From positions 16,941 through 80,940 of the forward strand of contig SXUI01000040.1 in the NCBI GenBank assembly GCA_005790605.1: a stretch of 64,000 nt of DNA. The letters run 5' to 3'. Every line of letters begins with the position of its first letter. The first letter of the stretch is position 1. The notes under the pieces are model-generated. The model was not told the origin of the DNA and made no database searches. It saw only the letters and a program-made list of their open reading frames with translations. The position numbers and the translations under genes are program-made. Origin of the DNA: Planctomycetia bacterium (GTDB lineage Bacteria; Planctomycetota; Phycisphaerae; Phycisphaerales; SM1A02). Positions 26,683 to 60,449 of this stretch are shown one piece after another.

Positions 26683-26919
26683 GTGTCGGTACTGGGCAAG
26701 AAGATGCCTGACCCCACTCCATCCATCACCGACGCCATTCGCGAAAACGCCGCAGGCCTCAAGAAGGCTTCCAACGACGCAGGCAGCATCGAGCAGCACG
26801 CAATCGCAGATCAGATCGCGGCCGATCGCTACCTCGCGTCGAAGCTGGCCATGTCGCGAAAGCACCGTGGCCTACGCATCTCGCGCATCGTTGCGCCCGC
26901 TGCTGGAGGCGCGACCTGA
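26683..26919 (+). CDS. hypothetical small phage protein (gpW-like position)
   Basis: 78 aa between terminase and portal, the position of gpW in lambda. Confidence 0.3.
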   Translation: MSVLGKKMPDPTPSITDAIRENAAGLKKASNDAGSIEQHAIADQIAADRYLASKLAMSRKHRGLRISRIVAPAAGGAT

Positions 26920-28391
26920 TGCGTTGGCTCGCGGGGATTCTGAGCCGCAAGGCGTCTGCTGCACCACAGCGGCTTTCGATTCGCGCGCGCTACGACGCCG
27001 CCGCAACGACCGACGCCAATCGCAAGCACTGGGCCAACGCCGACGGGCTTTCCGCAGATGCCGCCGCCTCACCCGAAGTGCGTCGCATTCTCCGAAATCG
27101 CGCGCGCTACGAGTCGGCCAACAATAGTTACGCCTCAGGCATCGTCTCAACGCTCGCCAACGATGTCGTCGGCACTGGCCCACGCCTGCAGGTACTCACC
27201 GATGACGCCGAAGCAAACACCGCCATCGAGCAAGCGTTCAATGCGTGGGCCAACGCCATCAACCTCGCTGACCGACTGCGCACGATGCGCATGGCACGCG
27301 CTCACTCCGGCGAGTGCTTCGCGAAACTCGCATCAAACCCCGCAATCTTCGGCCCAGTGAAGCTCGACCTCGTGCTCGTTGAAGCCGAGCGCGTCGCGAG
27401 TCTCGCATATGGAGTGATGAGCTCCACCGAAGTCGACGGCATCGTCTATGACGCCGCTGGAAATCCGCTTCGCTACCGCGTGCTACGCGAGCATCCTGGA
27501 GATCGCGCGCTCAGGCTCGCGTCGGACACGATTGATGCCTCGCAGTTCATTCACTACTTCATGCCCGCGCGGCCAGAGCAACACCGCGGCATACCCGACC
27601 TCACACCCGCCCTGCCGCTCTTCGCGCAACTGCGGCGCTATACGATCGCCGTCCTCTCGGCCGCCGAAACCGCTGCAAATTTCGCAGGAACTGTCGAAAC
27701 CGACGCGCCCGCCAACGGCGAGGCCGATCCTGTCGAACCCATGGACACAATCGAGCTTGAAGCGAACTCGCTGCTGACACTGCCCGCAGGCTGGAAGATG
27801 TCGCAGGTCAAGCCCGAACAGCCCGCGACGACCTACAGCGAGTTCAAACGCGAAATCCTCAACGAAATCGCGCGCTGCCTCAACATGCCATTCAATGTAG
27901 CCGCAGGAAACAGTTCGGGCTACAACTACGCCAGCGGTCGACTCGACCACCAGACATACTTCAAAGCCATTCGCATCGATCAGGCGCACATGAGTCGCAC
28001 AGTGCTCGACCGCGTGCTTGGTGAGTGGTTCAACGAAGCGAAGCTCACCGAGAGGCTTGTGCCCACGCGGGTGCGCGTGCTCGACTCGCTGCCGCACCAG
28101 TGGTTTTGGGATGGCACCGAGCATGTCGATCCCGCAAAGGAAGCTACTGCGCAAGCGACGCGCCTCGCGAATCACACCACGACGCTCGCGAGCGAGTTTG
28201 CCAAGCAAGGCAAGGACTGGGAAGCGGAACTGCGGCAGCGCGCGCGCGAGCTCGCGTTCATGGATGAACTCGGCATCACCGCGCTCTCGTCGGTACCTCT
28301 CAACGAGACGCCACGCGAGCGCAATGACCAGCGCGCGGATCAGGCAAGCGACGAGGACACGCATGACGAACTTGATGAATCAGACCTCTAG
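26919..28391 (+). CDS. phage portal protein (lambda gpB family)
   Basis: N-terminal 'RYDAAATTDANRKHWANADGLSADAAASPEVRRILRNRARYESANNSYASGIV' typical of lambda-family portals. Acidic C-terminus. Confidence 0.85.
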   Translation: MRWLAGILSRKASAAPQRLSIRARYDAAATTDANRKHWANADGLSADAAASPEVRRILRNRARYESANNSYASGIVSTLANDVVGTGPRLQVLTDDAEANTAIEQAFNAWANAINLADRLRTMRMARAHSGECFAKLASNPAIFGPVKLDLVLVEAERVASLAYGVMSSTEVDGIVYDAAGNPLRYRVLREHPGDRALRLASDTIDASQFIHYFMPARPEQHRGIPDLTPALPLFAQLRRYTIAVLSAAETAANFAGTVETDAPANGEADPVEPMDTIELEANSLLTLPAGWKMSQVKPEQPATTYSEFKREILNEIARCLNMPFNVAAGNSSGYNYASGRLDHQTYFKAIRIDQAHMSRTVLDRVLGEWFNEAKLTERLVPTRVRVLDSLPHQWFWDGTEHVDPAKEATAQATRLANHTTTLASEFAKQGKDWEAELRQRARELAFMDELGITALSSVPLNETPRERNDQRADQASDEDTHDELDESDL

Positions 28392-37368: not shown

Positions 37369-38457
37369 ATGTCGGACTACCTCAAGAATGTCAGACGCGG
37401 CGAGCCGATCGACCTCTCTGCAGCTGCGTGGAACAAACTGATGGATATGGCCCGCCGCGACGGCGTGCGTGGCGCATCCGGAATGGCTGACCCACTCTTT
37501 GCGAAGCGCGATCGCGATGTGGTGCTCGTCAAAAACATGTCAGGTATCGAGTACCCACGATGGGGTGTACTCGGTCTTGGCGCACCCGTGTATGTGCCGC
37601 AGCACAACCCGCCGAGCGGAAAACAAGAGTTGCCGCAAGACTTCGCGGAGAACTTAGTACTCCGCGGCGAGATGCCCGTCGCGGGAGTGCACGAGGGACT
37701 CTTCGGTGTGCTGCTTCAACCGCTCAAAGATGGTGACATTGGCGCCGCGATTGTGTCGGGGACTTTCGGTTGCGTGATTGTTGTGCAAGACGGGCGCCAT
37801 CGCTTCGCTGATGTGTATCCGTCGCGCGCGGCGGGTGGTTCGGGCGAGAGCTTCTCAAGTGGCGCAGCACTCATCGATGGCGATGTCTTGCTGCGCAGTT
37901 GCGATCACGGCGGCGCGGAGATCCTTTGGAAGGAAGCGGGACTGGGCGAGCGATATGCGGCGATCAGGCTCGCGCAACAACCTCGAACGAGATGGCGAGC
38001 AATCCTCGGAGCAGCGCACCTTCTCCCCGGCGAACGCTTTCGTTGGCGCTACGAATGGCACGAAGCGCGCATCGACGCCGATCCCGCCAGTCCGACCAGC
38101 GGCTGCTACATGCCACTCGAAGTCGGGCTCTCAAGCAAGGACACACTCGGCAGCGAAGTCGACGCGCGCATGGCGATCAACCGCTACGAGTCGCATCTGT
38201 CGCAGATTCATTCGCAACCTGACAATGGCATCGAAGGCTTCGCCATTGCTGGCGCGTGCCTCGTCCGGGGCGTACCCGAGTCGTGCCCGCCCGAGAGAGC
38301 GGCGGTGCCGATCCTCCAACCAATCCTTTCTGGTGTCTGCGTCGAGCTCGTCGCCGAGCCCGATTCCCACGGGAACACGCGATACACGTTCGAGGCGCTC
38401 AACGGTGTGATCTTCACCGAGATGACCGTGCCGCCGCTGCGAGGGACCTTTCAATGA
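37369..38457 (+). CDS. tail tip / baseplate-like protein (hypothetical)
   Basis: 362 aa. Position only. Confidence 0.4.
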   Translation: MSDYLKNVRRGEPIDLSAAAWNKLMDMARRDGVRGASGMADPLFAKRDRDVVLVKNMSGIEYPRWGVLGLGAPVYVPQHNPPSGKQELPQDFAENLVLRGEMPVAGVHEGLFGVLLQPLKDGDIGAAIVSGTFGCVIVVQDGRHRFADVYPSRAAGGSGESFSSGAALIDGDVLLRSCDHGGAEILWKEAGLGERYAAIRLAQQPRTRWRAILGAAHLLPGERFRWRYEWHEARIDADPASPTSGCYMPLEVGLSSKDTLGSEVDARMAINRYESHLSQIHSQPDNGIEGFAIAGACLVRGVPESCPPERAAVPILQPILSGVCVELVAEPDSHGNTRYTFEALNGVIFTEMTVPPLRGTFQ

Positions 38458-38891
38458 ACCCGCGTGTGAACGACCCAAACCAAGTGGTCGAAGCGATCCT
38501 CGCGATCGAAGCGATGCGACCACCGCCCCGCTTCATTGTGCACCTTCGTTGCCATGACAACGCGCTCGTGTCGGCACTCCGAAGAAGGCGCTGCGATGGT
38601 CTCGGCGTCGACACAGAAAGCGAAGCAGCCGACATGCGCGGAGCAATTGGAATCAACGCAAATGAGCGCGTGCCTGTCGCTGACGGCGTGGCCGACTGCG
38701 TCATCTTTCTTGGCGCAACCACTGCAGAGCTCGATCACGCGTGGGCTGAGATCCGCCGCATCGCCCGGCCGCGCGCGCACTTCCTCTTGTCGTTCACTCG
38801 CGCACCCACGGCAAGTTGGTGCAGCGCACGACTGACAGGAGCAAGCGTCTCACGGCGTCATCCCTTTGTGTGGGGCACGTTCCATGCGTGA
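38454..38891 (+). CDS. small SAM-methyltransferase-like protein
   Basis: 'DCVIFLGATTAELDHAWAEIRRIARPRAHFLL' resembles the C-terminal part of class I MTases. ATG overlaps the upstream stop. Confidence 0.3.
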   Translation: MNPRVNDPNQVVEAILAIEAMRPPPRFIVHLRCHDNALVSALRRRRCDGLGVDTESEAADMRGAIGINANERVPVADGVADCVIFLGATTAELDHAWAEIRRIARPRAHFLLSFTRAPTASWCSARLTGASVSRRHPFVWGTFHA

Positions 38892-39771
38892 GCACGCTGG
38901 CGACATCGCTGCGCTCCAATCGGGGCTTCGGCAACGCAGGCCAAGTTTGAGCGGCGTGCGATTGTGGACTGCCGACTTCGACCATGTGTCGCTCGCGAAC
39001 TTCTACCGCGGCAAGCACGCGTTTCTTGTGCTCAGTGGGCCAAGTCTCTTGACGCACGACCTGTCTGAGCTTTCGCGCCGCGGCATCGTGACGATGGGCG
39101 TCAACAACTCGTGGACAGTAGTACGCCCAACGCTGTGGACCTGTGTGGATACGCCCGATCGCTTCGTCGACATCGGATGGAAAGACCCGGGGATTACGAA
39201 GATCGTGCCTATTGAGCATTGGAACTCGCGGCTGCGTGTCGCGCTTGGTGAGGGCCGCTTTCGCGCGAGTCAATTTCGCGTGGCCGACATGCCAAGCGTG
39301 TTGATGTATCGGCGCAGCGACACGTTCGATCACCGCTCGTTTCTGAGAGGCGACACGATCTCGTGGGGCTGCGCGACAAGCGCGACGGACTCATTGGGCA
39401 TCAAGGGCAAGCGCAGCGTCATGCTCGCCGCGCTCGGGCTTCTCTACTACCTCGGCTTTCGCCAGGTCTATCTCGTGGGCGCTGACTTTCGCATGGCGAC
39501 CAACCAGAGATATGCCTTCGACGAACAGCGTTCGGCTCAGGCGATCCGCCACAACAATGTGCTCTACGAGAGTCTTGATAGGCGCTTCCACGCGCTGAAG
39601 CCAGAGTTCGCGAAGGCGGGTTTCTCTGTCCACAACTGCTGCGAACACAGCGGGCTCACTGCGTTTCCGAAGATCAGATTTGCCAAGGCCGTCGAACGCG
39701 CGAGCGCGGAGTGCTCGAAACCTGTGCCGACGGATGGTTGGTACGAACCAATACGGGAGAACAAACGATGA
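38884..39771 (+). CDS. DUF115 / MptE-like (Maf-type) domain protein
   Basis: 'HAFLVLSGPSL', 'GIVTMGVNN', 'LLYYLGFRQVYLVGADF' blocks resemble DUF115. Confidence 0.35.
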   Translation: MREHAGDIAALQSGLRQRRPSLSGVRLWTADFDHVSLANFYRGKHAFLVLSGPSLLTHDLSELSRRGIVTMGVNNSWTVVRPTLWTCVDTPDRFVDIGWKDPGITKIVPIEHWNSRLRVALGEGRFRASQFRVADMPSVLMYRRSDTFDHRSFLRGDTISWGCATSATDSLGIKGKRSVMLAALGLLYYLGFRQVYLVGADFRMATNQRYAFDEQRSAQAIRHNNVLYESLDRRFHALKPEFAKAGFSVHNCCEHSGLTAFPKIRFAKAVERASAECSKPVPTDGWYEPIRENKR

Positions 39772-40775
39772 GTATGACTTCAAGTGGCTCGTCAAATCCG
39801 ATGCGATACTTTCTCTATATTCCGGTGTGGGCCACGACGCAGCAGCCTGAGGGCAGCGACTCGGAGAGCAACTCGAGTGGATCATTGAGTGAGTCGAACA
39901 GCAGCGGATCGAACAGTGGCTCGGGTAGTGGATCATCGAGCGGCACTGGTGGCTCGTTGGGAGGATCAAGTGGCGGATCCAGTAGTGGATCAACCGATGG
40001 TTCGAGCGGAGGATCCACTGGCGGTTCTGGCGGTTCTGGTGGTTCTGGTGGTGGTTCCGGCGGCGGTGGCGGCGGATCGGGCGGTGGCGGCGGCTCCGGC
40101 AATTGCCTGCTCTACGGTTCCCTCGTCACGCTCTCTGACGGCAGCACGATTGCCATCGAAGAGCTGCGCCCTGGCATGGAGGTGGCGTCGCTTGCAGTGC
40201 CCGGGCTCGACACCGATGTCGACTACCGCGCGCAGTATGCGTGGCTCTCTTCGCACGGTCTTGATGGCTGCGCGCCGCGGAGCGTGCGCCTCGATCATGT
40301 GCGCAAGGGCGAGCACGACGGACACTTTGTCATCAACGATCGTATTCGCGCAACATTCGAGCACCCGTTTCTGATCCGCCGCGGCGACCAGTGGGGCTTC
40401 GCGTCCGCGCACCTCCTTGAGATCGGCGATCGGCTGGTCGTTCCCGCGCACGGTGGCTCACTCGGCGAAGAGCGCATCGAGTCGATTGAGGCAATCGCCG
40501 GCGTCGTGCGCACGGTCGCGATTCATGTGCCGGGCACGAACATATTCATCGGCGACGGCGCGTGGATGCACAATGATCTCTCCCTCAGTGCGATGTCGAG
40601 TTCGAGCGGCTCGATGTCGTCGGGATCGGGCATAGGTTTGTCGAGCGGATCAAGCAGCGGCGGCAAGAACAGTGGCTCGAGCTTCTCTGGCAGTGCTTCC
40701 ACGGGAGGCACCGCGCTCTCGGGAAGCGGACCGCAGTTTTCTTCGACATTCACTCCGACAACTGGCAAAGGTTGA
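39768..40775 (+). CDS. Ser/Gly-rich protein with internal Hint (bacterial intein-like) domain
   Basis: Low-complexity S/G N- and C-terminal regions flank a block that starts with Cys (SGN-CLLYGSLVTLSDGSTIAIEELRPGMEV) and ends 'VAIHVPGTNIFIGDGAWMHN', a Hint-domain signature. Confidence 0.55.
   Translation: MSMTSSGSSNPMRYFLYIPVWATTQQPEGSDSESNSSGSLSESNSSGSNSGSGSGSSSGTGGSLGGSSGGSSSGSTDGSSGGSTGGSGGSGGSGGGSGGGGGGSGGGGGSGNCLLYGSLVTLSDGSTIAIEELRPGMEVASLAVPGLDTDVDYRAQYAWLSSHGLDGCAPRSVRLDHVRKGEHDGHFVINDRIRATFEHPFLIRRGDQWGFASAHLLEIGDRLVVPAHGGSLGEERIESIEAIAGVVRTVAIHVPGTNIFIGDGAWMHNDLSLSAMSSSSGSMSSGSGIGLSSGSSSGGKNSGSSFSGSASTGGTALSGSGPQFSSTFTPTTGKG
39990..40100 (+). repeat. coding tandem 9-bp (Gly-Gly-Ser) repeats
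   Basis: ggcggttct ggcggttct ggtggttct ggtggtggt tcc ggcggcggt..., a simple-sequence tract prone to slippage. Confidence 0.6.
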
Positions 40776-40776
40776 A

Positions 40777-41286
40777 ATGCGACGATGGCACATTGTGGCC
40801 GACCTCTGCAATCGCCACGGCCTTCGCCGCGGCGTCGAACTCGGCGTGCGCGAGGGACGCTTCACGAAGCACATCCTTGTTCATGTGCCCGACAGCCAAC
40901 TGATCGGCGTCGATGTGTGGCGCGCGCTCCCCACGCGTGACGCGCCCGGCGCAGAGACATACGCAGAGTGGCCCATGGCTCGCTACCGCGCTCAAGCGAT
41001 CGCGCTCGTCGATCAGTTCCCGAATCGTTGCCGCATGCTCGAGATGACCACTGACGAGGCTGCCAAAGCGCTGCCCGACGCAAGCGTCGACTTTGTATTC
41101 ATCGACGCAGACCACACTCAGGATGCCGTCGCGCGCGACATCGCTGCGTGGACACCGAAGGTGCGACCAGGCGGACTGATTGCGGGCCACGACATCCGCT
41201 GGCCATCCGTGCGCCGCGCTGTGGCAGCAAGCGGGCCATTTGAGGAAGTGGGCCACGACGAAGTGTGGTTGCGGTGGATCTCATGA
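40777..41286 (+). CDS. class I SAM-dependent methyltransferase (Methyltransf_24 / TylF-like O-MTase family)
   Basis: 'LGVREGRFTKHIL', 'DASVDFVFIDADHTQDAVARDIAAWTPKVRPGGLIAGHD'. Confidence 0.65.
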   Translation: MRRWHIVADLCNRHGLRRGVELGVREGRFTKHILVHVPDSQLIGVDVWRALPTRDAPGAETYAEWPMARYRAQAIALVDQFPNRCRMLEMTTDEAAKALPDASVDFVFIDADHTQDAVARDIAAWTPKVRPGGLIAGHDIRWPSVRRAVAASGPFEEVGHDEVWLRWIS

Positions 41287-41930
41287 CGCCGACAATCGCG
41301 TGTGTACTGCGCTCGGGCGGCCGCTACAGCGCTGACTGGGTCGCGCGACTCAAGCGCGGCATCGAACGCCACACGACGGTGCCCCACCGCTTCGTGTGTC
41401 TTACTGATGTCGATGTGCCCGATGTCGAAACGATCGCACTCGTCGAAAGTTGGCCAGGATGGTGGTCGAAGATCGAGCTCTTCCGGCCGGGGCTACTCAC
41501 CAGACAAACGCTCTACCTTGATCTCGATGTCGTGATCGTCGGCGACATCGCACCGCTCCTTCGAGCATGCGACGCCTTTACGATGGTGCACGAGCGCGGC
41601 ACGAGTAATTACTTCAATTCGTCAGTCATGGCGTGGAACGGCGACATGAGTTTCCTGCACAATGCGTTTCGCGCAGACGCGCTTCAACACATGCATCGCT
41701 ATCGCAGTCATCCGCGCATCGGCGATCAGGCGTTCATCAGCGAGTTCCTTGTGAGCGAAGGTAAGAAGCCACGAACCTTTCGCGGCGTGCTCGGCTACGA
41801 CGCGATTGTGTCGTACAAGCGCGATCGATGCGAGAGTCGTCCCCCGCCGAGCGCATGCGTCGCGAACTTCCATGGCCGACCAAAGCCGTGCGATTTCGAG
41901 ACGGGCTGGGTGGCGGAAGCGTGGAAGTGA
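41283..41930 (+). CDS. putative glycosyltransferase-like protein
   Basis: DxD-like 'YLDLDVVIVGD' with nucleotide-sugar transferase-like context. Weak. Confidence 0.3.
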   Translation: MTPTIACVLRSGGRYSADWVARLKRGIERHTTVPHRFVCLTDVDVPDVETIALVESWPGWWSKIELFRPGLLTRQTLYLDLDVVIVGDIAPLLRACDAFTMVHERGTSNYFNSSVMAWNGDMSFLHNAFRADALQHMHRYRSHPRIGDQAFISEFLVSEGKKPRTFRGVLGYDAIVSYKRDRCESRPPPSACVANFHGRPKPCDFETGWVAEAWK

Positions 41931-42205: not shown

Positions 42206-43843
42206 ATGGCTGAAAGTTCAGCGTATGGCGGACGTGGACGCCCATGGCATCCAGAGTTCGTCGAGTACATGGAGTTCATCGTGCAGCACCCCGTGTACAG
42301 CGGAATGCCGGATGCATACTACGAACCTGGGCGCATTCAGTGGGAAGCCCCATCCAATCGCAGCAGCGGGCAGTTCAAGGACACGCATGGTCGACGTGCA
42401 AAGTGGTGGGCCGCGAAGGCCGCGGAAATCGGCGTGTCAACAGCTTCTGATCAGTGGATCTCACGCGTCGCCAAAACCATCCACCCTACGAAACTGAAAC
42501 CGTGCAAGATCTGCGGACGCCAGCTTCAGCTTCGATATGCCTATCCCCAGGAAAGGCTACTGCAGAGACTTCGAGATTTGCGCGGGGTTCCAACCGACTT
42601 CCAATTCGATCCGCTCGAGCCAATCTCTGACCTGGTACTTCGATTGGATCGACACTGCGGGTCCACCGTGATTTCACAACTTCCATCCGTGTTCAGCAGC
42701 GGACTCAAGGCCCTCAACACCAAGCCGATTCCTCGCTCGATGCCTGAATGGATCGACTGGCTCGAGAAGCATTACATCCCGTCAGAGCCACGTGGCGTTC
42801 TCAGTCCAGGCGCCATGTCAAATGCGCCAGACCGCTTCGACGGCTTTCACTGCGACAACTTGTGCTGCAGAAAGCACGCGGATAAAGGTCGAAGCAAGGA
42901 GAATTTGCAGACGTACGTGACAGATCGCCGGGTGTTTGAGTACTGGTCTGCCGGGGACTGGGTGGCAGCCGACCGTCTCATGGGCCTCGTGCGTACGACA
43001 TTGTCTTCGGCGACCTGCCGAAACGGCCATCAAGGACCATGCGCGGCTGACCACATTGGCCCGATTTCGCTAGGCTTTTGTCATCGGCCACGGTTTCAGT
43101 TGTTGTGCACCCCCTGCAACAGTGCAAAGAGCAACCGAATGTATCTCTCCGATGTTCTGCTTTTGAAGCAACACGAAGCGACAGGAGAGACAGTCGTTTC
43201 GTGGCATTCGCGTGCGGTGTGGGACCTTTGCAAAGATCGTGTGGGTACCGACGAGCACGCGAGGCGACTGTCAAAGTTGATGCGCGACAACCGGCACTCT
43301 CTGATGGCTGCACTCAAAGAGGTGTACGACGCCAACGGCCTGACCTATCTTGCGTCCCTCCTCGAACTCGACCGCGCAAATTTTGACGTGACATTCACCG
43401 AACTCAAGGCAACCGATCATCTCACGGCATATGCAAAGTTGGTGCATTCGGCACGCGATACCAAGTATGCGGTCGAACAGAAGGTCCGCCGCCTTCGGAT
43501 CGCGTTCGACGAACTATCCGCGTACTTTGAGAAGCGGAATAGAAACGCATTTGTCGCCTGCCCAACCACCACGCATCTGAAACGAGCGGTCGATAGTCTT
43601 TCAAAGGCTCGATCTGGATTCTCGATGCAGGAGGCCTTGCTTGCGAAGGCGAATGCCGCAGCGAAGGATGCCCAAGGAAGCCTATTCAGGGCCTCTCTCG
43701 ATTCGACCCGAGCGGTTCCCGCTTCGGCCTTTGCCGCAACACATGCAGCACTCGAAGCGCATATGAACCAGACGGGGAGAACCCTCGCCGAACTCTGGGA
43801 ATCTGATCGCTACTGCCGCGAGATAGCTGAGGATGTCGACTAG
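42206..43843 (+). CDS. candidate Type IIS restriction endonuclease with HNH (His-Me finger) motif
   Basis: 'CAADHIGPISLGFCHRPRFQLLCTPCNSAKSN' fits the HNH pattern. Convergent with two DNA MTases. 545 aa, a size similar to BsaI/Eco31I-type REases. Confidence 0.4.
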   Translation: MAESSAYGGRGRPWHPEFVEYMEFIVQHPVYSGMPDAYYEPGRIQWEAPSNRSSGQFKDTHGRRAKWWAAKAAEIGVSTASDQWISRVAKTIHPTKLKPCKICGRQLQLRYAYPQERLLQRLRDLRGVPTDFQFDPLEPISDLVLRLDRHCGSTVISQLPSVFSSGLKALNTKPIPRSMPEWIDWLEKHYIPSEPRGVLSPGAMSNAPDRFDGFHCDNLCCRKHADKGRSKENLQTYVTDRRVFEYWSAGDWVAADRLMGLVRTTLSSATCRNGHQGPCAADHIGPISLGFCHRPRFQLLCTPCNSAKSNRMYLSDVLLLKQHEATGETVVSWHSRAVWDLCKDRVGTDEHARRLSKLMRDNRHSLMAALKEVYDANGLTYLASLLELDRANFDVTFTELKATDHLTAYAKLVHSARDTKYAVEQKVRRLRIAFDELSAYFEKRNRNAFVACPTTTHLKRAVDSLSKARSGFSMQEALLAKANAAAKDAQGSLFRASLDSTRAVPASAFAATHAALEAHMNQTGRTLAELWESDRYCREIAEDVD

Positions 43844-43845
43844 GT

Positions 43846-45090
43846 TTATGAGGAGGCCAGCTTGCCGCGCCGCCGAACGCTACCCGTATTGATTGGATCC
43901 GGCAGCTCGGTCAGGGAATCAACATCCGATCCTCGAGTGCTCAAAGCCGCGATGTAGGACTGTGCGCTAGTGCACCCGCGCATCAGCGATTGATAATCCG
44001 ATTTTGGAGCGGTTACATATTCGAGAGTCTCCCCGTTCTCACCTGCAACGAGCGCTGGTAAATCGCCGAGGGCCTCAAGGACGGAGATCGGTGTGCCGCC
44101 AAAGAGGCCGTTCGTCAGTGGTCCGTGAGGCAATTGAAACGCCGCACGCTTCCTGAATCCAACAATGATGATTCGCTTCCGACGCTGCGGCACGCCATAC
44201 TCCTCGGCGGATACGCGCCAGACCACTATCTCCCTAGCGACGGAACGAAGCGCCTGACTGACGCGCTCGAAGACCCGACCTGATTCCATGTTGATCAGGC
44301 CCGTCACATTCTCGAACAAGAAGGCGTCGGGATCGACCGCCTCGACGATCCGACAGTAGTCATTGAAGAGCAGATTGCGTTCATCTGCCTCGCTACGACG
44401 ATTCCCCGCGGTCGAGAACCCCTGGCATGGAGGTCCTCCAACGAGAACCTTCGGCACTCGCGAATCGCCGGAGGCTGCCAACTCGACGATCCTGTTTCGG
44501 ATGTCCTCTTCTCGAACATCGCCAACCACAACATTTGGGTGGATGTTCCGCACGAATGTCTTCATGGCGTGTTCGTCGATATCTGATGCCACCAAGCTCT
44601 TCCAACCAGCCCAGTGGAATCCGAGTGAGAGCCCACCTGCACCCGCGAACAAGTCGACGAGATTCCCGGGGCGCCCGAACGAGGTGGCCAACCAATACGC
44701 AAGGAGCGGCGGTACCGCGTTCCCGATCTGCTTTGATACAGCGGTGAGCGGTCCGGTGAAAACGAAGCTGTCAGGGAAACTCTGCAGGCGGGCCGCTTCG
44801 CGGTAGGAGAGCGTGCGAAGTTGCGCCCACTCGTAATGCAAGTGGCAACCGTTCCCGGGTCGACCAACGTAGGTAGAGATCGTGTACGAGGGCTGCGACG
44901 GATGCAGCCTCCCGTAATAGGTTGAACGACTTCCCTCGCCTCGCGCGTAACTCTCGCGGATCTGCTTCAGTCGCTGAGAAGGCACGGACTCGGGAATGTC
45001 CTTCCAGTTACCGCCTGGCGGAACAGCCCGCGCAAACTGCAGATCGAGTGCGCTAAGTTTCGGCGCAATATGATTCCGAATCATCACCAC
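43846..45090 (-). CDS. DNA (cytosine-5)-methyltransferase, circularly permuted motif order
   Basis: Motif I 'DLFAGAGGLSLGF', IV 'GGPPCQGFSTAG', VI 'FLFENV'. Motif IX/X-like 'LSYREAARLQSFPDSFVFTG' lies N-terminal to motif I. Confidence 0.85.
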   Translation of the reverse strand: MVMIRNHIAPKLSALDLQFARAVPPGGNWKDIPESVPSQRLKQIRESYARGEGSRSTYYGRLHPSQPSYTISTYVGRPGNGCHLHYEWAQLRTLSYREAARLQSFPDSFVFTGPLTAVSKQIGNAVPPLLAYWLATSFGRPGNLVDLFAGAGGLSLGFHWAGWKSLVASDIDEHAMKTFVRNIHPNVVVGDVREEDIRNRIVELAASGDSRVPKVLVGGPPCQGFSTAGNRRSEADERNLLFNDYCRIVEAVDPDAFLFENVTGLINMESGRVFERVSQALRSVAREIVVWRVSAEEYGVPQRRKRIIIVGFRKRAAFQLPHGPLTNGLFGGTPISVLEALGDLPALVAGENGETLEYVTAPKSDYQSLMRGCTSAQSYIAALSTRGSDVDSLTELPDPINTGSVRRRGKLASS

Positions 45091-46685
45091 AATTCCTTGT
45101 AAAGAAGGGCGTCTCGCTCTTCCGCTCTCAGTTTCGGGAAAGCCGGCAGCACGCTGGCAAAGGCGTCGCGATCGAGTCCGTACGCGCGCGCCACGGCCAC
45201 CTCAAGCCCTGGAAGTTCGATAGAGGAGTTCAACCGCCTATCGAGCATCAGCAACAGCCGTTCGCGCTCGGGCGACTCGAGCAGAAGAGTTAGAGGTGCG
45301 GCGCACCGTCGCAGCACCCCCTGCGAAACATGCGTTGTCGCGAGCTTGGTTCGAACCTGAAGCTCAAAAACCAAGCTGTTCATGACGGCGAGCAAAGCCG
45401 AAAGGGCTTTCGCGTCACCAGTTCGAAGAAACGCGATTCCAAGTGAGTTGCCCGTCACATTCCTTGGCGGCACGAAGGCGACGTGCATTCGCCTGCGCTG
45501 GGTGGGACGCGAGACATCGCGCCATGCAATCCTTCGCTCCAACACAGTTGCGGGAATCTGACGCTTAGTCGGATCGATGTAGTCGATGGATTCTCGCTTG
45601 ACCTGGAATGGGAACACATGCCGCCCCTTCAAAAAGGGGATGCCACCAACGACAGATCCAAATGACTCAGCCAAGCGTGTCTCGTCGAGCTCTCTTCCGA
45701 GCCGCAAGCCGATGCGTAGATCCTCTTCTAGCATTGAGAGCGATGCGTGTTGGCCGCAAATCAACCGAACGATCTCCTCCGCATCTCCTGCTACATTGAG
45801 TGCCAAGGGATCACTCAAACTCGAACGGAGGATATGTTCGCGCGACTCAACCTGATTGCGCGCAGCATCGAAGCGCGTGAGCTGAAAGCAACGCGTTGGT
45901 CCGCCTTCCCGCGCTGCCAAGGTTACGAACGCCTGGTCGACCGAGTCGAAAAACTTTGCTTCCGCGGGGTAGTACTCGATTCCGCTCACATCTAGCCTCT
46001 GGAACAAGCTTGCTCTGAAGGGCGATGAAGCTTGGTCGGCGAAGATCGCTGCCGGCAGAACTATGTACATCGCAGCGCTTGCCCGAAGCAGCCGCGCAGA
46101 CGCGATGGCGCCCGCGCGCGCCAGATTTACCCCGTACCCCGTGACCGCCTTGCCTGATGCACTCTTGCAGCCTGGGAACTCACGATCGAGCCACTCGGCA
46201 TATCCCCGCAGTGACTGCCTGTACTCGCCGGGTAACTCCACAGCGTCGCGCGAGTCCGGCTTGAGGAGTTCCCAAGGAGGATTGGTCAGCAGCAAGTCAA
46301 CACTTGCCGTCTCGAGGGGAACTCTTCGGAATGTATCTCCGCTCAACGCTACGAGTCGAACTCTCGCCGAAAGCCCAAGATCCTGAAGGAGGGCACCGAT
46401 TGCGCTGCGGGCGGTGTGTACCGCTTCGGCGTCGTAGTCAAAAACTCGGACCTCCGACAGACGTTCAATCGCGTTCTGATCGATCGCAGCTCGTCGCAGC
46501 CAAGCGACTACCAGCCTCCCGTCGCCACAAAATGGATCGCAGACGCACTGGGGCTGAAATCCCGACGCGACTGCTCTTGCGGCAAGCGCCCCCGCTATCT
46601 CGAGAGGCGTGTAAAAGCGACCGGTCAGCCGCGCCTCAATGTCAACTCGACTCGACGAGCGCTTCGCGATCTCAACATGCAGCAT
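45084..46685 (-). CDS. N6-adenine DNA methyltransferase (gamma class, NPPW)
   Basis: Motif I 'VCDPFCGDGRL' precedes motif IV 'LLTNPPWELL'. Confidence 0.8.
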   Translation of the reverse strand: MLHVEIAKRSSSRVDIEARLTGRFYTPLEIAGALAARAVASGFQPQCVCDPFCGDGRLVVAWLRRAAIDQNAIERLSEVRVFDYDAEAVHTARSAIGALLQDLGLSARVRLVALSGDTFRRVPLETASVDLLLTNPPWELLKPDSRDAVELPGEYRQSLRGYAEWLDREFPGCKSASGKAVTGYGVNLARAGAIASARLLRASAAMYIVLPAAIFADQASSPFRASLFQRLDVSGIEYYPAEAKFFDSVDQAFVTLAAREGGPTRCFQLTRFDAARNQVESREHILRSSLSDPLALNVAGDAEEIVRLICGQHASLSMLEEDLRIGLRLGRELDETRLAESFGSVVGGIPFLKGRHVFPFQVKRESIDYIDPTKRQIPATVLERRIAWRDVSRPTQRRRMHVAFVPPRNVTGNSLGIAFLRTGDAKALSALLAVMNSLVFELQVRTKLATTHVSQGVLRRCAAPLTLLLESPERERLLLMLDRRLNSSIELPGLEVAVARAYGLDRDAFASVLPAFPKLRAEERDALLYKELW

Positions 46686-47412
46686 ACTTCACCCCTCGAA
46701 CCAACCGAGACACCATTTCGTCTGGCACAAGAGGCGCATTTTGACATTGAACGACCGCTCGCCGAATCACGGCTCGAACCACCCCGACGGAGCGAAGGTT
46801 CGCGTTCGAGCCAAATCGAATTGCCGGCCCTTGATTCGCTACAGCATTCTCGTTTCTGATCACGCGTGCGAGTGACTCCCCGTCCAATGAGAATGCAAGC
46901 CAGTCACTCGAAGTGGGAGCCGCTCCCTCATCGATCATGAGCCTGTCACCGGGCTGCAGACAAAGGTCAGACTCGCACGACGCCGAAAGGCACCAAAGTA
47001 CGGCTATTCCGCCGCCTGGTAGCAGTTCCGCAAACCACTTCGCACCGGCTTCCGACCGGTCATGAGGGGATTGAGCAACGCCGACCTGGCGCTCGCAGAG
47101 ATCCGGGCACGCACTCGACAGCACCTGCAGGCCGCGGAACCGCCGAGCAGCGAGTCGCACGTAGCCCTTCCGTTCGAGTGCTTTGAGGTGGTCACGAACC
47201 GTGGCGGTCGATCGGAAGCCCAACTCGGCCTGCAACTCGCGGTAGGTCGGTGGAAGATCGCCGCGCAGCGAGCAAACCCGCAGCACTCGAAGCACGCGAA
47301 GCTGGGCTGGGGTAAGCGGGCTCAAGGTGGCGCTACCGTACCACTCATTTGAGTGCCCCGCAAGCGTTGCCTCCGTCGTGGCCGCTCGAACATTGTCCGC
47401 ACATGCTGACAT
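46672..47412 (-). CDS. LexA/CI-like transcriptional regulator (wHTH + S24-peptidase-like C-terminal domain, catalytic residues unclear)
   Basis: 'LTPAQLRVLRVLRVCSLRGDLPPTYRELQAELGFRSTATVRDHLKALERKGYV' is a LexA-type wHTH. The C-terminus aligns with LexA's beta domain but Ser/Lys are not evident. Start chosen at an internal Met (ORF runs to 47652). Overlaps the m6A MTase start by 14 nt. Confidence 0.55.
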   Translation of the reverse strand: MSACADNVRAATTEATLAGHSNEWYGSATLSPLTPAQLRVLRVLRVCSLRGDLPPTYRELQAELGFRSTATVRDHLKALERKGYVRLAARRFRGLQVLSSACPDLCERQVGVAQSPHDRSEAGAKWFAELLPGGGIAVLWCLSASCESDLCLQPGDRLMIDEGAAPTSSDWLAFSLDGESLARVIRNENAVANQGPAIRFGSNANLRSVGVVRAVIRRAVVQCQNAPLVPDEMVSRLVRGVKYAAC

Positions 47413-47434
47413 ACTGCGGCCGACGAGCAAGCAC

Positions 47435-48163
47435 ACTATGCCGGACTGCGACTCACCTCCCGAACACGACTCAAGCGACATCACCGCGAACTCGGCAGGA
47501 TCTCCTTGGACTCCGGTACGGTTCCAACTGTTGGAGTGGTTTCGCCAAGATGCGCCGTCGCTCGCTGGAGCGTACGAAGCAACTGTCTTTCTCGTTTCCA
47601 CTCCATCAGTTCCGGCGCGGGTCCATTTAGTCTGCCACCTTGTGCGCGACATCTACGGCAAGCTTCCAGAGATCCTTGACGGGGAGTTTCGTTTCCAGAG
47701 TGCCGGTGCTGTCTACCCACCATTCATCGATACGATCGCCAACCATTGGAGATCACCCGATGGCGCCCTGTTAACCAACGCCGCAGCTTCCGAAACCGCG
47801 CCGAGCGCGTCCGACCGCGTTAACGTTCCGAGAGCGGCTGCTCGCGCGGTAGACGACCTCCTCGCTCGACGAGCGGTGCTCAAAGATCAGCCCCGCAGCA
47901 CGGAGGTCCTTGCTCGAGCGCTATTCAGACGCTTCGCCGAATCTGGGCTTCAACCACCTGCTCGCCTGGCCGCCACGTTCGAGGAGGAGAGGAGATGGTT
48001 CACCGACCGTGCGCACCTGGTACTTGAGCGCGCCAAAGTACCTGCTGAGGAAGGGCTGCTCGATCATTTCGCCTCATTCGAGGGTGCGCTCCATTCGCTC
48101 GTCGGCGAGTACTTCACAGGGAAGGAGGAGCTGGATGCAATCCTCGCACAAGCCAACGCCTGA
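47435..48163 (+). CDS. hypothetical protein (first gene of divergent operon)
   Basis: Start at the internal Met of ORF 47327-48163. No recognisable domain. Confidence 0.35.
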   Translation, partial: TMPDCDSPPEHDSSDITANSAGSPWTPVRFQLLEWFRQDAPSLAGAYEATVFLVSTPSVPARVHLVCHLVRDIYGKLPEILDGEFRFQSAGAVYPPFIDTIANHWRSPDGALLTNAAASETAPSASDRVNVPRAAARAVDDLLARRAVLKDQPRSTEVLARALFRRFAESGLQPPARLAATFEEERRWFTDRAHLVLERAKVPAEEGLLDHFASFEGALHSLVGEYFTGKEELDAILAQANA

Positions 48164-50993
48164 GCAGGTTATGGCAGCGGTCGCGCGGATCACCGCGCCT
48201 CATCTCGAGCGCTACTTTTTCGAGAGGCTCGAAAACCCCGCATGGATCGAGCCCCTGCACGCGCACGGCTTCTTCAAGGATCCGCCCGCTCCCGAGCGAA
48301 TGGACGGCGGAGTGCGCTGCAGACTCTGGCCTCAGTCGGCGTATCTCGCACGCATGGCGCCGAGTGCGCCCGAGGCGGTCGCGACGATTCTCGGCACGCT
48401 CGAGACGAGCAACTGGATGGTTGTGCGCGACATGCTAGTGGCCGCGAGCCAACTGCCCTCGCCGCTCGTTCGATCACTCGTGCCTAACCTCGGCGACGCC
48501 GTTCGCTCGCATCGACTTTGGCATTCACTCGACACCCTCGGCGCAATCGTCGCAAACTTGGCGCACGACAATCACTCTGAGGTCGCTATCGACTTGATGA
48601 TCCGCGGGTTCGGAGGTGTTGTTGAGCGAGACGAGCAGACCCTTCGACAGGCGTCATATCCATTCTTCGAGGCGCTGACTGAGTCCGTGGTGCCCGCGCT
48701 GGCGCGATCCGCTCCGCTCCCGCTACTTGAGGTGTTGCTGCGATGGGTTCGCTCCGCAGCTTCCAAGGAGCACCCCTCGCGGGCTGATGGCGATGAACTG
48801 TCATACATCTGGCGACCAGCGATCGAGGAACACGAACAAAATCGGGACCACGATTTCGCAGGTCGGCTGCTGGGAGTTGTGCGCGATGTGTCGGAGCGCG
48901 CCATTCGCGATGCTGGCCTCGGCGTCAGCGCTCTTCTCGACGTACTCCGACCCGATGGTTCGGTCATCGGTCAACGCCTTGCCCTGCACCTCATCGGAGA
49001 GTTTAGCGAGAGGGAGCATGGCTTGACAGAATCAATGATGCTCAACCACAGGCTGTTTGCAGACCATCGTGTCAAGCACGAGTACGCACGGCTGATGGCG
49101 CGAAGATTCTCTCTGCTCAATCCCGACCAGCAGTCTCAGTGGTTCTCATGGGTCGTCGCTGGGCCACCTGATGATTCCGCCGCGGACCCCGCGAGCCGCT
49201 CCCAGTATGTTGCCTATTGGAAGTTCTGCCGGCTGCACTGGATCTGGGAGCACCTGACAGGTGCGCACCGCGCCTTCTACGAGAAGATGTTGACGGAACA
49301 CGGCGTTCCGGAGTTGGCGGATCTCAATATTCACTTCGGCGGGGTTCAGTCAGTCGTTGAGCTTTCCCCGTTCACAGTCGAGGAGCTTGCGGCAAGAGGC
49401 TTTGCCCCGGCGATCGAACACGCCCGAAGCTGGCGTCCAGAACCATGGTACCGTCGGTTTGATGCGCCTTGCATTGAAGGGTTCGCCAACACATTTCAGC
49501 AGTATGTCGCAACCGCGCCCGACCGCTTCTCTCGCGGTGCAACAATTCTCATCGGCCTCTCCGCGCCGTTCATTCGAGCGTTCCTACGCGCCATGATGGA
49601 CGCGATCAAGCGCGGCACGCGAGTTGATATCGTGAGCATCCTGACACTCTGCCACTGGGTGCTCTCGCGCCCGGTCGCGGAACGAACCTCGCCCAACGGC
49701 GAGTGCGAGCCCTTGCTAGATAAGGACTGGCAATGGTGTCGAGAGACAATCGGAGAACTGGCGGCGGCTGTGTGTGGAGCGCGCACCGATTCCCGACCGA
49801 CCTACGGGGTCGAACTGCGAGAATCTCTCTGGACCTCGATAGAACCGCTCCTTTGCGACAAGGCTGACTCGCACATCGTCCAACAGCAGGCCTGCATCGA
49901 TCCACGTGTGTCTGATTGGACGCTTCTTTCGGTCAATTCGCCGCGCGGGAAGGTGATGGCGGCCATTTGGGCGTACGCGGACTGGCTGGCGTGGCATCTC
50001 GATCCTGCACGCAAGGACCACACCAAGTTTGCTGGGACACTCGATCAGATGCCTGAAGTGCGGTCTGCGCTAGAGCGGCAGCTCACCGATGAATCAGCCG
50101 GGTTCACGGGACGTGCCGGATTCGGGATCCGGCTGGGTCTACTCTGGTGGATCGACACAGACTGGTTGGCCAGACATGCGTCAGTGATTTTCGATCTGCG
50201 CGCCTTCGAGATTGAACCGCAGCGGGCGTTCGGTTGGGCTGCTTGGAATACGTTCTTGTTCTCGAATCGGCCACACGTCGAGCTGTACAAGGTGCTTCGG
50301 GACCAGTTCGGTTACGCCGTTGATCAGGCCGCTCGCTGCGACCAAGTTGGTGACTCGAGGGAAGGGCCGTACTTCCATCTTGGCCAGCACTTGATGACGC
50401 TCTACGGTCGCGGAGACTTCGGATCTGACGCGGAAACGGCATGGGAAGCCGACCAAGGAGTCATCCGACGCCTCGTCACCCAGGCTCAATGGGCAATCCG
50501 CAGCTACGCGATCGAGTTTGTCGGAATCAGCCTGAATGATTCCGGCGGCAAGGTTCCCGACGAGGTGAGAGAGAGATTTGTCGGGCTCTGGGAGCGATAT
50601 TGGGCACAGGCCGGTTCCACTGATGCGCGCGCCGATCCGAACAGCGGCGTCTTTGGTTGGTGGTTCTGCTCGGGCGTGTTCGATCCGGCTTGGTCGATTC
50701 AACAGCTTGAGAGCTTCGTCGCACGCTGTCCAAAGGCCGAGCCCGATCATCTGATCGTGGAGCGCCTGGCAGCGACGGCGGAAGCCGATCCGCTGCGCGC
50801 AGCCAAAATCGTGGACATGCTTGTCGCAGGAGATAACGAAGGCTGGCGCGTTCGAGGATGGGCCGCCGACGCCAAGAAGGTGCTGGCGATTGCCCTCAAG
50901 GCAGGAGGTGAGGCGCGTGGGGCCGCCAAAGCCGCAATCGACAGACTTGGAAAGCACGGCCACAACGACTTCGGAGCCTTGCTGAAGGCTTGA
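48135..50993 (+). CDS. large hypothetical protein (953 aa, Trp/Arg-rich, predicted alpha-helical)
   Basis: Strong RBS (GAAGGAGGAG) 5 nt before the ATG. Overlaps the upstream gene by 29 nt. No recognisable enzymatic motif. Confidence 0.5.
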   Translation: MQSSHKPTPEQVMAAVARITAPHLERYFFERLENPAWIEPLHAHGFFKDPPAPERMDGGVRCRLWPQSAYLARMAPSAPEAVATILGTLETSNWMVVRDMLVAASQLPSPLVRSLVPNLGDAVRSHRLWHSLDTLGAIVANLAHDNHSEVAIDLMIRGFGGVVERDEQTLRQASYPFFEALTESVVPALARSAPLPLLEVLLRWVRSAASKEHPSRADGDELSYIWRPAIEEHEQNRDHDFAGRLLGVVRDVSERAIRDAGLGVSALLDVLRPDGSVIGQRLALHLIGEFSEREHGLTESMMLNHRLFADHRVKHEYARLMARRFSLLNPDQQSQWFSWVVAGPPDDSAADPASRSQYVAYWKFCRLHWIWEHLTGAHRAFYEKMLTEHGVPELADLNIHFGGVQSVVELSPFTVEELAARGFAPAIEHARSWRPEPWYRRFDAPCIEGFANTFQQYVATAPDRFSRGATILIGLSAPFIRAFLRAMMDAIKRGTRVDIVSILTLCHWVLSRPVAERTSPNGECEPLLDKDWQWCRETIGELAAAVCGARTDSRPTYGVELRESLWTSIEPLLCDKADSHIVQQQACIDPRVSDWTLLSVNSPRGKVMAAIWAYADWLAWHLDPARKDHTKFAGTLDQMPEVRSALERQLTDESAGFTGRAGFGIRLGLLWWIDTDWLARHASVIFDLRAFEIEPQRAFGWAAWNTFLFSNRPHVELYKVLRDQFGYAVDQAARCDQVGDSREGPYFHLGQHLMTLYGRGDFGSDAETAWEADQGVIRRLVTQAQWAIRSYAIEFVGISLNDSGGKVPDEVRERFVGLWERYWAQAGSTDARADPNSGVFGWWFCSGVFDPAWSIQQLESFVARCPKAEPDHLIVERLAATAEADPLRAAKIVDMLVAGDNEGWRVRGWAADAKKVLAIALKAGGEARGAAKAAIDRLGKHGHNDFGALLKA

Positions 50994-56240: not shown

Positions 56241-56347
56241 TGACTTCCGTCGTTGCTTTGAGGTGTGCGCCGCCTTGAGCCGAGCAACCGCACGTTTTCA
56301 TGAGCCCAACCATCGAATCTACCGCGCGCGTCAGTACGCTGTAGTCC

Positions 56348-57226
56348 ATGATCGGCCATCAAACACTCCAGCTCGCCGCCGTCCTCTCACTCGCCACCGC
56401 ACAGTTCGCCGGGGCCGACTTCACAGGCTGGATCGTTGAGCGCGTCGATCGCGAGGGGCTCGTACGGTTCGATGTGTGGGCCACCTTTGACGATCCGCTC
56501 GACGAGATTGCCTTGCTCCTTTACCTCACGCTTGCGGAAGGGTCGCCAGTCTTCCATCACCGGGATGTGCTCACGCAAGGCGCCGACTCGACAGTTGTGG
56601 GCAGTTGGGATCCGAACTTCGTCCTCGCACCCGACGCGATGGACTCTTACTTGATGCTCGGTGGTGGGACCGGCTTGGCATCGGGCAACCTGACCTTCGC
56701 CGGCGTGGAATGGGGACTTCCAGGTTGGCATGTACCGCAAATCCCCTTCGGCGACTACCTCACCGGACCATCGATCCTCGTCGCGCATCAGAACGGGCAA
56801 GGATTCGTTGGAAAGGACGGGCGCGTGCAGGTTGGAAGTTTCGTAGTCTCGCCAGCAGATGCGGAAGCCGGCGCGATTGTGTACGCAAAGATCGGCCACC
56901 GCGACCAACCCTTCCTCAATATCCTCCATCGACAAACGCAGTTCTGCTTGGGAGGGCCATGCGCGATCCCTGACTGCAACGCCAACGGTTTGATCGACGG
57001 CGCAGATATCGCATTCGGCATGGCTGACTCGGATGGAGACGATCAGCCCGACGACTGCGAACGCCAGCGCGGTGATCTGAACCTCGACAACGCGACCAAT
57101 GGCGCAGACCTTGCGATGCTGCTCGACGCGTGGGGACCGGGGTCAGGCGTCGCCGACATCAATGACGACCTCTTCGTGAACGGCGCGGATCTCGCGATCC
57201 TGCTGTCGAACTGGGGCGAGCACTGA
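56348..57226 (+). CDS. secreted protein with C-terminal dockerin-like repeats
   Basis: Signal peptide (LQLAAVLSLATAQFAGA). C-terminus 'DLNLDNATNGADLAMLLDAWG', 'DINDDLFVNGADLAILLSNWG'. Confidence 0.55.
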   Translation: MIGHQTLQLAAVLSLATAQFAGADFTGWIVERVDREGLVRFDVWATFDDPLDEIALLLYLTLAEGSPVFHHRDVLTQGADSTVVGSWDPNFVLAPDAMDSYLMLGGGTGLASGNLTFAGVEWGLPGWHVPQIPFGDYLTGPSILVAHQNGQGFVGKDGRVQVGSFVVSPADAEAGAIVYAKIGHRDQPFLNILHRQTQFCLGGPCAIPDCNANGLIDGADIAFGMADSDGDDQPDDCERQRGDLNLDNATNGADLAMLLDAWGPGSGVADINDDLFVNGADLAILLSNWGEH

Positions 57227-57233
57227 CGGACGA

Positions 57234-60303: not shown

Positions 60304-60449
60304 ACGCGCGGAGAGTGAACCGATGGCCCTTGGACTTGTCGAGTGCGCCGAAAAAGCTTGATCGTCGGCGCGCTCGCGAATAGAGTGAAGATGGCAAGAC
60401 AGTCCAGTCGCTCGTTCACGGTGCGGTTGAACCCTGAAGAGAGCGAAAC

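Follow-up and report, generated by a model that had tools for sequence, protein, structure and literature searches.

The 64-kb window analyzed here (positions 16,941 to 80,940 of contig SXUI01000040.1, GenBank assembly GCA_005790605.1) contains a prophage about 45 kb long, in the genome of a Phycisphaerae bacterium (Planctomycetota). Straight after the genes for the prophage tape-measure protein (TMP) and the two proteins that follow it, pt1 and pt2, lie five open reading frames (ORFs) on the + strand that we call g1 to g5 (Table 1). The third of these, g3, encodes a Ser/Gly-rich protein with an embedded Hint domain, and its neighbors resemble methyltransferase and glycosyltransferase genes. 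Gene order, gene fusions and co-variation in related prophages connect g3 with pt2 and with the adjacent transferases, and suggest that the g3 protein could be a glycosylated thread at the phage tail tip.

The presence of five tightly packed genes after the tail genes had been proposed in an earlier reading of the window made from the sequence alone (the sequence-only reading). Coordinates, strand and junctions all agree with that proposal, as does an independent gene call on the source contig, which gives the same five products of 145, 295, 335, 169 and 215 aa. Independent gene calls on an 88.6-kb metagenome contig that carries a 100%-identical pt2 are exactly the same gene models. Three junctions, at 38454, 39768 and 41283, are ATGA overlaps; at 38884 the neighboring genes share 8 nt, and at 40776 a single nucleotide separates them. 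These overlapping start and stop codons suggest that the cluster is co-translated with the tail genes. A scan for promoters and terminators gave a number of sites not above chance, and thus it is the overlapping codons that speak for an operon. The region had no blastn match in 50,697 phage genomes, and an NCBIfam scan of the cluster proteins added nothing. In a low-complexity scan of all frames, g3 was the sole product of the window with Ser/Gly/Thr-rich tracts.

The g3 protein and its Hint domain

We found 47 homologues of g3, all from Phycisphaerae and some of them named 'Hint domain-containing protein', and drew the anatomy of the family from 110 unique sequences. In the protein of the window, a short N-terminal motif (YFLYIPVW, termed type A) is followed by a disordered linker (the N-extein), the Hint domain and a second disordered tract (the C-extein). 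We take the motif to be a docking or recognition element. Across the family, the N-extein linker is 78-240 aa long, 79% Ser, Gly or Thr, and free of Lys in 89 of 100 sequences. Its composition forms a gradient: the proximal part is rich in Ser and Thr, and Gly makes up 59% of the last 25 residues before the Hint Cys. An origin of the Ser/Gly tract as a DNA-repeat artefact was considered and rejected, as tandem repeats are weak and the composition is kept across divergent DNA.

The Hint domain is 152-164 aa long and is present in ~95% of family members. The sequence-only reading had pointed to a TxxH block and a terminal HN pair as marks of this domain. Cys1 and T-x-E-H (T196-F-E-H199 in the window) proved invariant, and His-Asn is found in 109 of the 110 sequences. 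The residue at -1 is Asn in 105 sequences and Ser in five, and the residue at +1 is Asp in 100, Thr in five, Gln in two, Ala in two and Tyr in one. The C-extein is a Ser/Gly tail of 16-145 aa with one conserved block, K-S-S-G-S-S-(F), which lies 19-57 aa past the Hint domain in about all of the 109 complete C-exteins. Within the homologue alignment K300, S304 and S305 are invariant and F306 is nearly so.

Pfam gave no match for the whole of g3 or for its central 177 aa, with no curated Hint-clan model reaching its gathering score, and the Hint call therefore needed a family profile and a structure model. All 12 family members that were scanned have sub-threshold matches to Hint-clan Pfam families (Intein_splicing, Hint_2, Vint and PT-HINT). 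The family profile matches the structure of a bacterial intein-like (BIL) domain (2lwy, 3.4e-6), with mini-inteins next. In the AlphaFold2 model, residues 111-270 form an ordered core with a predicted local distance difference test score (pLDDT) >90 between disordered flanks. These results bear out the description of g3 as a 335-aa Ser/Gly-rich protein with an embedded Hint/BIL module. The domain combines the Hint fold, a Cys nucleophile with T-x-x-H, and a C-terminal His-Asn without a nucleophile at +1. Type-A BIL domains end in His-Asn, lack a +1 nucleophile and mainly undergo cleavage, although splicing is possible via a liberated alpha-amine (PMC4031507). Judged by its residues, the g3 Hint domain matches this definition and is a predicted type-A BIL.

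The connection between g3 and pt2

A finding that goes beyond the sequence-only reading is that the Hint protein is tied to the tail protein pt2 by gene fusion or by a split domain. In eight loci, from phages that lack g1 and g2, an in-frame fusion joins the whole pt2 N-domain to a Ser/Gly-Hint cassette. A second kind of g3 N-motif, type B (LLWVQP...IAWxIARIG), corresponds by homology to the final segment of the pt2 N-domain. Loci of the L003 type, of which there are at least five distinct ones, have the pt2 N-domain split over two tandem Ser/Gly-Hint genes (L003, 8656-10888; also L031, L042, L051 and L078), with residues 1-140 heading the first Hint protein and the remaining ~45 the second. 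This arrangement would imply that two polypeptides, each with a Hint thread of its own, come together to form the domain.

The pt2 N-domain (aa 1-205) is itself widespread. An exhaustive search found it at the head of 2338 cluster representatives, 206-1166 aa in length, with unrelated C-terminal parts. Tail-fibre and receptor-binding proteins usually consist of a constant anchor joined to a distal part that varies. By analogy, proteins with the pt2 N-domain appear to have a fibre-like modular architecture. The ten longest of them had no Pfam domains, and a protein word-index search with pt2 returned near-identical sequences only. pt1 occupies the same place in nearly all related loci, at 43-90% identity. 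Neither pt1 nor pt2 had a PDB profile match or a PHROG match.

The neighboring transferase genes

g2 shows the highest conservation in the module, with 53-90% identity among relatives. The sequence-only reading had called it DUF115/Maf-like, and this call holds at the level of the fold: g2 has the fold of the Maf central domain, it matches PHROG 4603 'sialyltransferase' (8.7e-8), and 31 of 35 homologues match MptE-like, each below threshold (best E 8.3e-6). In Pfam, g2 itself scores 19.8 bits against PF01973 (MptE-like), below the cut-off of 34.6, and a match to CST-I is also sub-threshold. A tblastn search with g2 found nothing in the 50,697 phage genomes, and no cultured phage of that collection has g2. 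MptE-like folds are annotated in uncultured Caudovirales, where they are uncharacterised. Maf enzymes O-glycosylate flagellin in the cytoplasm, ahead of its export (PMC4065374, PMC11339370).

The view of g1 as a small methyltransferase-like gene is right as to homology, but the gene in the window is truncated and its motif I is degenerate. g1 matches the methyltransferase domain of P0148, a natural g1-g2 fusion protein that carries Pfam Methyltransf_23/25/11, with an E value of 3e-13, and on g1 itself Pfam Methyltransf_11 reaches only 0.064. In the alignment, g1 of the window lacks ~25 aa at the N-terminus, the block SFDALEHL and a further segment of 15 aa. Motif I reads HLRCHDN in place of the DFGCGxN of at least 40 homologues, and there is no intact Gly-rich S-adenosylmethionine (SAM) motif (D/E-x-G-x-G-x-G). 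Because of this replacement of motif I, g1 of the window is probably inactive. The shortened g1 is found in this phage and its nearest relatives, the same clade that carries g4 and g5. L009 is an example of a related locus with an intact g1.

g4 is a methyltransferase of the Methyltransf_24 family (70.2 bits against a cut-off of 26.3, E 3.3e-19), in agreement with the annotation of the source contig. The methyltransferase part of an earlier assignment as a TylF-like O-methyltransferase thus stands and the TylF part does not: a Pfam scan down to E 0.1 gave no match to TylF-type macrocin O-methyltransferases. Only generic O-methyltransferase relatives were found, the nearest PDB chain being Rv1220c (E 0.0019), and g4 also matches PHROG 2675, which is labelled 'DNA methyltransferase'. 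For g5, the expectation of a DxD glycosyltransferase-like protein agrees with a match to PHROG 1962 'glycosyltransferase' (1.2e-38), with tblastn matches to PmgQ of phage P1 and to Citrobacter phage phiNP (32-33% identity, E 1e-17 to 2e-22, covering 93% of the length for PmgQ), and with a DxD motif, DLD, within LYLDLDVVIV. Pfam GT8 on g5 reaches only E 0.07, too weak to assign a CAZy family, and the PDB gave a single, insignificant match, Skp1 glycosyltransferase (E 0.17). g4 is limited to L005-L008 and L061/L086 and g5 was seen in L005 and L007 only; both are accessory genes specific to one clade.

Gene order and enzyme pairing in related prophages

We compared about 160 related Phycisphaerae prophage loci, comprising 56 genomic and 24 viral loci anchored on the Hint gene and 80 viral loci anchored on g2. 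The order TMP-pt1-pt2-g1-g2-g3 is kept in about 60 of the 80 Hint-anchored loci, and this series, preceded by the capsid gene, recurs throughout Phycisphaerae metagenome-assembled genomes, often several times in one genome. Among g2-anchored loci, 79 of 80 have g1 and pt2 upstream of g2, and of the 41 with enough sequence on the downstream side, 39 have a Hint gene there. g4 and g5 are confined to the nearest relatives, which leaves pt2-g1-g2-g3 as the conserved unit and g4-g5 as a clade-specific add-on. Besides P0148, proteins P0129, P0154 and P0161 are natural g1-g2 fusions. Locus L029 belongs to a complete genome (CP159477.1), and pt2 was not detected in it.

The N-motif of g3 co-varies with g2. 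Type A co-occurs with g2 in 46 of 47 loci and type B in none of 14, and type A is found in 59 of the 69 g2-anchored loci with 150 nt or more of sequence past g2. In type-B loci, which have neither g1 nor g2, other transferases take up the position after the Hint gene: a GT25-like+Sulfotransfer_3 fusion follows it directly in ten loci, and DxD Gly_transf_sug/TcdA-TcdB-like glycosyltransferases or a pol-beta-type nucleotidyltransferase follow it in others. The phage genes of ordinary type-A loci end with g3, and host genes or excisionase-plus-defence cargo come next. Three type-A loci (L103, L151 and L152, at ~6.8-7.9 kb in each) have a g3 without a Hint domain. These variants combine a YYLYIPVW N-motif with a Ser/Thr/Gly-rich tract, lack the KSSGSS motif and end in FIEGGMEGVPPAGWQ, and they are followed by two DxD glycosyltransferase-like genes. 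P0046 and L049 have a GG(M/L)(E/D)GVP...WQ ending like theirs past their Hint domain.

Every architecture that we examined pairs the thread protein with glycosyltransferases or other group-transferases, and the enzyme families differ. Comparative genomics thus supports a functional link, as yet a predicted one, between the transferases and the Ser/Gly-rich Hint protein. The sequence-only reading had treated all five genes as one modification system acting on the Ser-rich protein. The part of it that links enzymes to g3 is sustained by synteny, g1-g2 fusions, motif co-variation and replacement transferases, but g4 and g5 do not belong to the conserved unit.

Incomplete copies were also seen. 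L058 has only a Hint fragment (9872-10561, query residues 143-304) with no upstream phage genes, adjoining a P-type ATPase and an outer-membrane efflux protein, the host genes that flank a complete prophage in L040 (segment compared, 6607-7872). L058 looks like a decayed prophage remnant at an insertion site shared with L040. Truncated Hint copies are present in L055, L057 and L060 as well. Many of the IMG/VR contigs (L086-L165) end 0-2.5 kb past g2, in or just after the Ser/Gly-coding tract, and homologues of g3 are consequently often truncated in databases. These ends may be assembly breaks in low-complexity DNA or prophage-boundary calls.

Prophage setting

The likely limits of the prophage are the tRNA-Asn gene and the large serine recombinase on the left and host-type genes on the right. 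Rightward of the recombinase are genes for a helicase and a primase-polymerase, then a gpA-like large terminase, a lambda-type portal and the capsid. The 781-aa capsid ORF, which as listed overlaps the end of the portal ORF, probably has a later true start, or else encodes a protease/scaffold-capsid fusion. TMP keeps its place in the gene order across loci, with identities of 26-85% (26-35% where set against the 53-90% of g2), and the syntenic TMP gene of L003 matches Pfam PhageMin_Tail.

A restriction-modification cassette (42206-47652) adjoins the cluster downstream. Its GC content is 0.57-0.58, against 0.61-0.63 in the phage body, a drop that suggests that the cassette is cargo acquired separately. 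Between its LexA-like gene and the host genes, a 1027-aa ORF (47910-50993) without a Pfam match could be more prophage cargo, such as a defence gene. Host-type genes begin at ~54 kb (54027-63964) and include Band 7/SPFH, LutB-like, sulfatase and a GH18 chitinase with CBM2 and dockerin. Just outside the prophage, upstream of the tRNA-Asn gene, positions 4738-6672 code for a 644-aa protein of the CotH kinase family (Pfam E 2.4e-38).

Table 1. The tail-distal cluster and other features of the window (coordinates are window positions).
Feature	Coordinates	Strand	Remarks
TMP, 629 aa	34637-36526	+	long Ala/Gly-rich ORF; marks the tail module upstream of the cluster
pt1, first post-TMP protein, 272 aa	36547-37365	+	
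pt2, second post-TMP protein, 362 aa	37369-38457	+	N-domain ~aa 1-205; C-terminal half variable
g1, truncated class I SAM-methyltransferase homologue, 145 aa	38454-38891	+	
g2, Maf/DUF115-fold (GT42-like) putative glycosyltransferase, 295 aa	38884-39771	+	
g3, Ser/Gly-rich thread protein with embedded BIL-type Hint domain, 335 aa	39768-40775	+	
g3 N-terminal motif YFLYIPVW, aa 14-21, type A	39807-39830	+	conserved in all type-A homologues
g3 N-extein linker, disordered Ser/Gly tract	39846-40103	+	low-complexity scan; pLDDT <50
g3 Hint (BIL type-A-like) domain, Cys113 to Asn269	40104-40574	+	block B T196-F-E-H199; end pair H268-N269; Asn112 at -1, Asp270 at +1
g3 K-x-S-G-S-S-F motif, K300-F306	40665-40685	+	in disordered C-extein
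g4, class I SAM-dependent methyltransferase, O-methyltransferase-like, 169 aa	40777-41286	+	Pfam Methyltransf_24 PF13578
g5, DxD (GT-A-like) glycosyltransferase, 215 aa	41283-41930	+	homologous to phage P1 PmgQ
tRNA-Asn	7601-7675		likely left prophage limit
Large serine recombinase	8812-10371		likely left prophage side
Portal ORF	26919-28391		3' end overlapped by capsid ORF as listed
Capsid ORF, 781 aa	28018-30363		Phage_capsid_4 at aa 489-777
Alw26I/Eco31I/Esp3I-family type IIS endonuclease	42206-43843		Pfam E 1.6e-174
C5 cytosine methylase	43846-45090	-	
N6-methylase-like gene	45084-46685	-	
LexA-DNA-binding-domain protein	46672-47652	-	

A model for g3 and its alternatives

With moderate confidence, we postulate that g3 is a mucin-like thread at the tail tip that is O-glycosylated by the adjacent enzymes and autoprocessed by its BIL domain. 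The protein would be a tail-tip appendage of a temperate, siphovirus-like Phycisphaerae prophage, consisting largely of a long disordered Ser/Gly(/Thr) thread. Its N-terminus would dock to the N-domain of pt2, and in other phages is part of that domain. During late expression, the co-translated Maf-like g2 could O-glycosylate Ser and Thr residues of the thread in the cytoplasm, as Maf does with flagellin, and we infer that the Ser/Gly linker is the substrate. The donor would probably be a CMP-activated (cytidine monophosphate) sugar of the nonulosonate type. The g1 methyltransferase may assist in most relatives, and in this phage g4 and g5 may elaborate the glycan in place of the degenerate g1. 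The glycan might next be tailored by methyl or sulfate transfer. In the BIL domain, Cys113 is predicted to form a thioester at Asn112-Cys113, and Asn269 to cyclise and so cut the Asn269-Asp270 bond. The Hint domain could be cut out and the two Ser/Gly arms ligated, or cleavage of the arms could be the sole outcome.

The BIL domain might also act as a ligase, a speculation to which we give rather low probability. The epsilon-amine of the invariant lysine in KSSGSS(F), from the same or a neighboring chain, would resolve the Cys113 thioester and yield branched or polymerised glycosylated threads at the tail tip. This lysine is a candidate acceptor because it is invariant in an otherwise Lys-free disordered context. 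Tandem two-cassette loci would, on the ligase reading, assemble multi-thread tufts. All three Hint-less variants lack the motif.

Several observations weigh against the proposed glycosylated, autoprocessed thread. Ser/Gly linkers are kept in type-B phages without g1 and g2, and thus do not strictly need the g1 and g2 enzymes. Since Hint-less variants occur (3 of 41 loci), the Hint domain is not indispensable for every member. g2 is without the flanking domains of a full-length Maf protein (295 aa compared to 632 aa), and g1 of the window is degenerate. No solved tail protein is recognisably homologous to pt1 or pt2, so the placement at the tail tip comes from gene order and architecture.

Three other explanations merit comparison, and all are weaker than that of a modified tail-tip thread. 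In lysogenic conversion, g1, g2, g4 and g5 would modify envelope glycans of the host (lipopolysaccharide, capsule or S-layer glycan, for example) against superinfection, and g3 would be a separate surface or secreted protein or an unrelated fibre. The cluster does lie at the distal end of the structural operon beside cargo such as the restriction-modification system, the Hint gene is the last one before host genes or defence cargo in many relatives, the accessory transferases differ by clade like conversion genes, and PHROG files the g5 family under 'moron, auxiliary metabolic gene and host takeover'. However, g1 and g2 are placed between the tail-linked pt2 and g3 with overlapping codons rather than in a separate moron cassette, g2 is more conserved than TMP, and the N-motif of g3 co-varies with g2. 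Scans of Pfam, PHROG and NCBIfam gave no match to a membrane protein, flippase or Gtr-type protein, signal peptides and transmembrane segments not being part of the search. We consider conversion an improbable account of the cluster. It also seems unlikely to us that the enzymes modify some other component of the phage, such as its capsid, tail tube or DNA, with g3 an unglycosylated, self-cleaving fibre whose Ser/Gly tracts are flexible spacers. Such an explanation could draw on the persistence of the linkers in phages without g1 and g2, on the label of PHROG 2675, and on actinobacteriophages, whose glycosyltransferases glycosylate capsid and tail-tube subunits as reported by Freeman et al. 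2023, according to PMC13313380. Against it, g3 is alone among the products of the window in having a Ser/Thr-rich extension, a transferase gene of one family or another is directly beside the Ser/Gly-Hint gene in every architecture examined, and the N-motif of g3 co-varies with g2.

The Hint domain might instead be a selfish mini-intein or the pretoxin-HINT module of a polymorphic toxin, unrelated to tail function, which we regard as very improbable. A canonical intein was rejected: +1 is Asp, a non-nucleophile, in 100 of the 110 sequences, the domain has no homing endonuclease, it sits in low-complexity flanks instead of a conserved host-protein site and is found in nearly the whole family, and the Hint-less variants are not precise deletions. 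A pretoxin-HINT toxin was also rejected, as the C-extein is a Ser/Gly tail that holds KSSGSSF and no toxin domain, and the downstream genes are transferases or cargo.

If the thread model is correct, then a large and hitherto uncharacterised group of Phycisphaerae prophages builds a disordered, probably O-glycosylated tail-tip thread, unlike classical folded fibres. Phage virion glycosylation would extend beyond actinobacteriophages, and a Maf-type enzyme would function outside flagellar biology. BIL domains, whose natural roles are largely obscure, would gain a defined context, with catalytic residues invariant in at least 110 sequences. The natural variants (methyltransferase plus Maf, GT25-sulfotransferase or DxD glycosyltransferases; fused, split or free anchors; Hint-less alleles) offer a comparative system for the roles of the enzymes and of the Hint domain. 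A small Hint domain with flexible linkers and no +1 nucleophile may also interest protein engineers. The ligase activity, if real, would be an enzyme-free and ATP-free viral route to a mucin-like covalent fibre.

Comparison with known systems

Each component of the cluster belongs to a known kind (type-A BIL, Maf/DUF115 fold, Methyltransf_24, PmgQ-like glycosyltransferase), and glycosylation of phage virions is known as well. We found no description of the whole module. The Maf (DUF115) proteins are nonulosonic-acid O-glycosyltransferases of flagellin; g2 corresponds to the central catalytic domain only, and its presumed substrate is a phage thread and not flagellin. Actinobacteriophages, in the account of Freeman et al. 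2023 cited in PMC13313380, likewise encode glycosyltransferases and methyltransferases near structural genes, and the targets given there are C-terminal extensions of capsid and tail-tube subunits. The cluster resembles these systems in that its enzymes are presumed to decorate a virion protein. It differs from that account in that the only Ser-rich protein of the window is the dedicated, tail-distal g3, with no such extension on the capsid or tail tube, and in its enzyme families, which are Maf-like and PmgQ-like, with GT25-sulfotransferase in relatives.

The only match to the g3 Hint domain in the phage collection is a 'tail protein, contains intein domain' of phage NCTB (LT598654; 38% identity over 80 aa, E 2e-8). 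As in g3, the NCTB Hint domain follows a Gly run (GGGGC...IHN), and its gene is in a tail-fibre cluster. Unlike in g3, the domain is placed at the very C-terminal end of a collagen-like fibre, seven residues before the stop codon, with neither Ser/Gly tracts nor KSSGSSF. The neighbors seen in NCTB are fibre and intein-domain proteins, none annotated as Maf-like. NCTB is a 258-kb metagenomic phage, and its tail-fibre cluster (L085, 96206-108433) encodes three Hint-domain products, the other two being an 'intein domain protein' and a 1304-aa 'large intein domain protein'.

Compared to known type-A BIL domains (Amitai et al. 2003; Dassa et al. 2004; CthBIL4, 2lwy), the g3 Hint domain has only ~20% identity. 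It also differs from them in lying between two long disordered Ser/Gly tracts in a protein of a phage tail module, in having Asn at -1 in nearly all members and in the conserved KSSGSSF downstream; its activity is predicted. The top structural match to g3 is BUBL BIL2 of Tetrahymena (6tmm), which carries out ubiquitin-like conjugation by protein splicing, a lysine resolving the thioester into an isopeptide bond (PMC8616854). In g3 the exteins are disordered Ser/Gly threads and not ubiquitin-like domains, the setting is a bacterial virus, and the role of Lys300 is hypothetical. A ligase activity of g3 would parallel both BUBL BIL2 and the building of pili by sortases.

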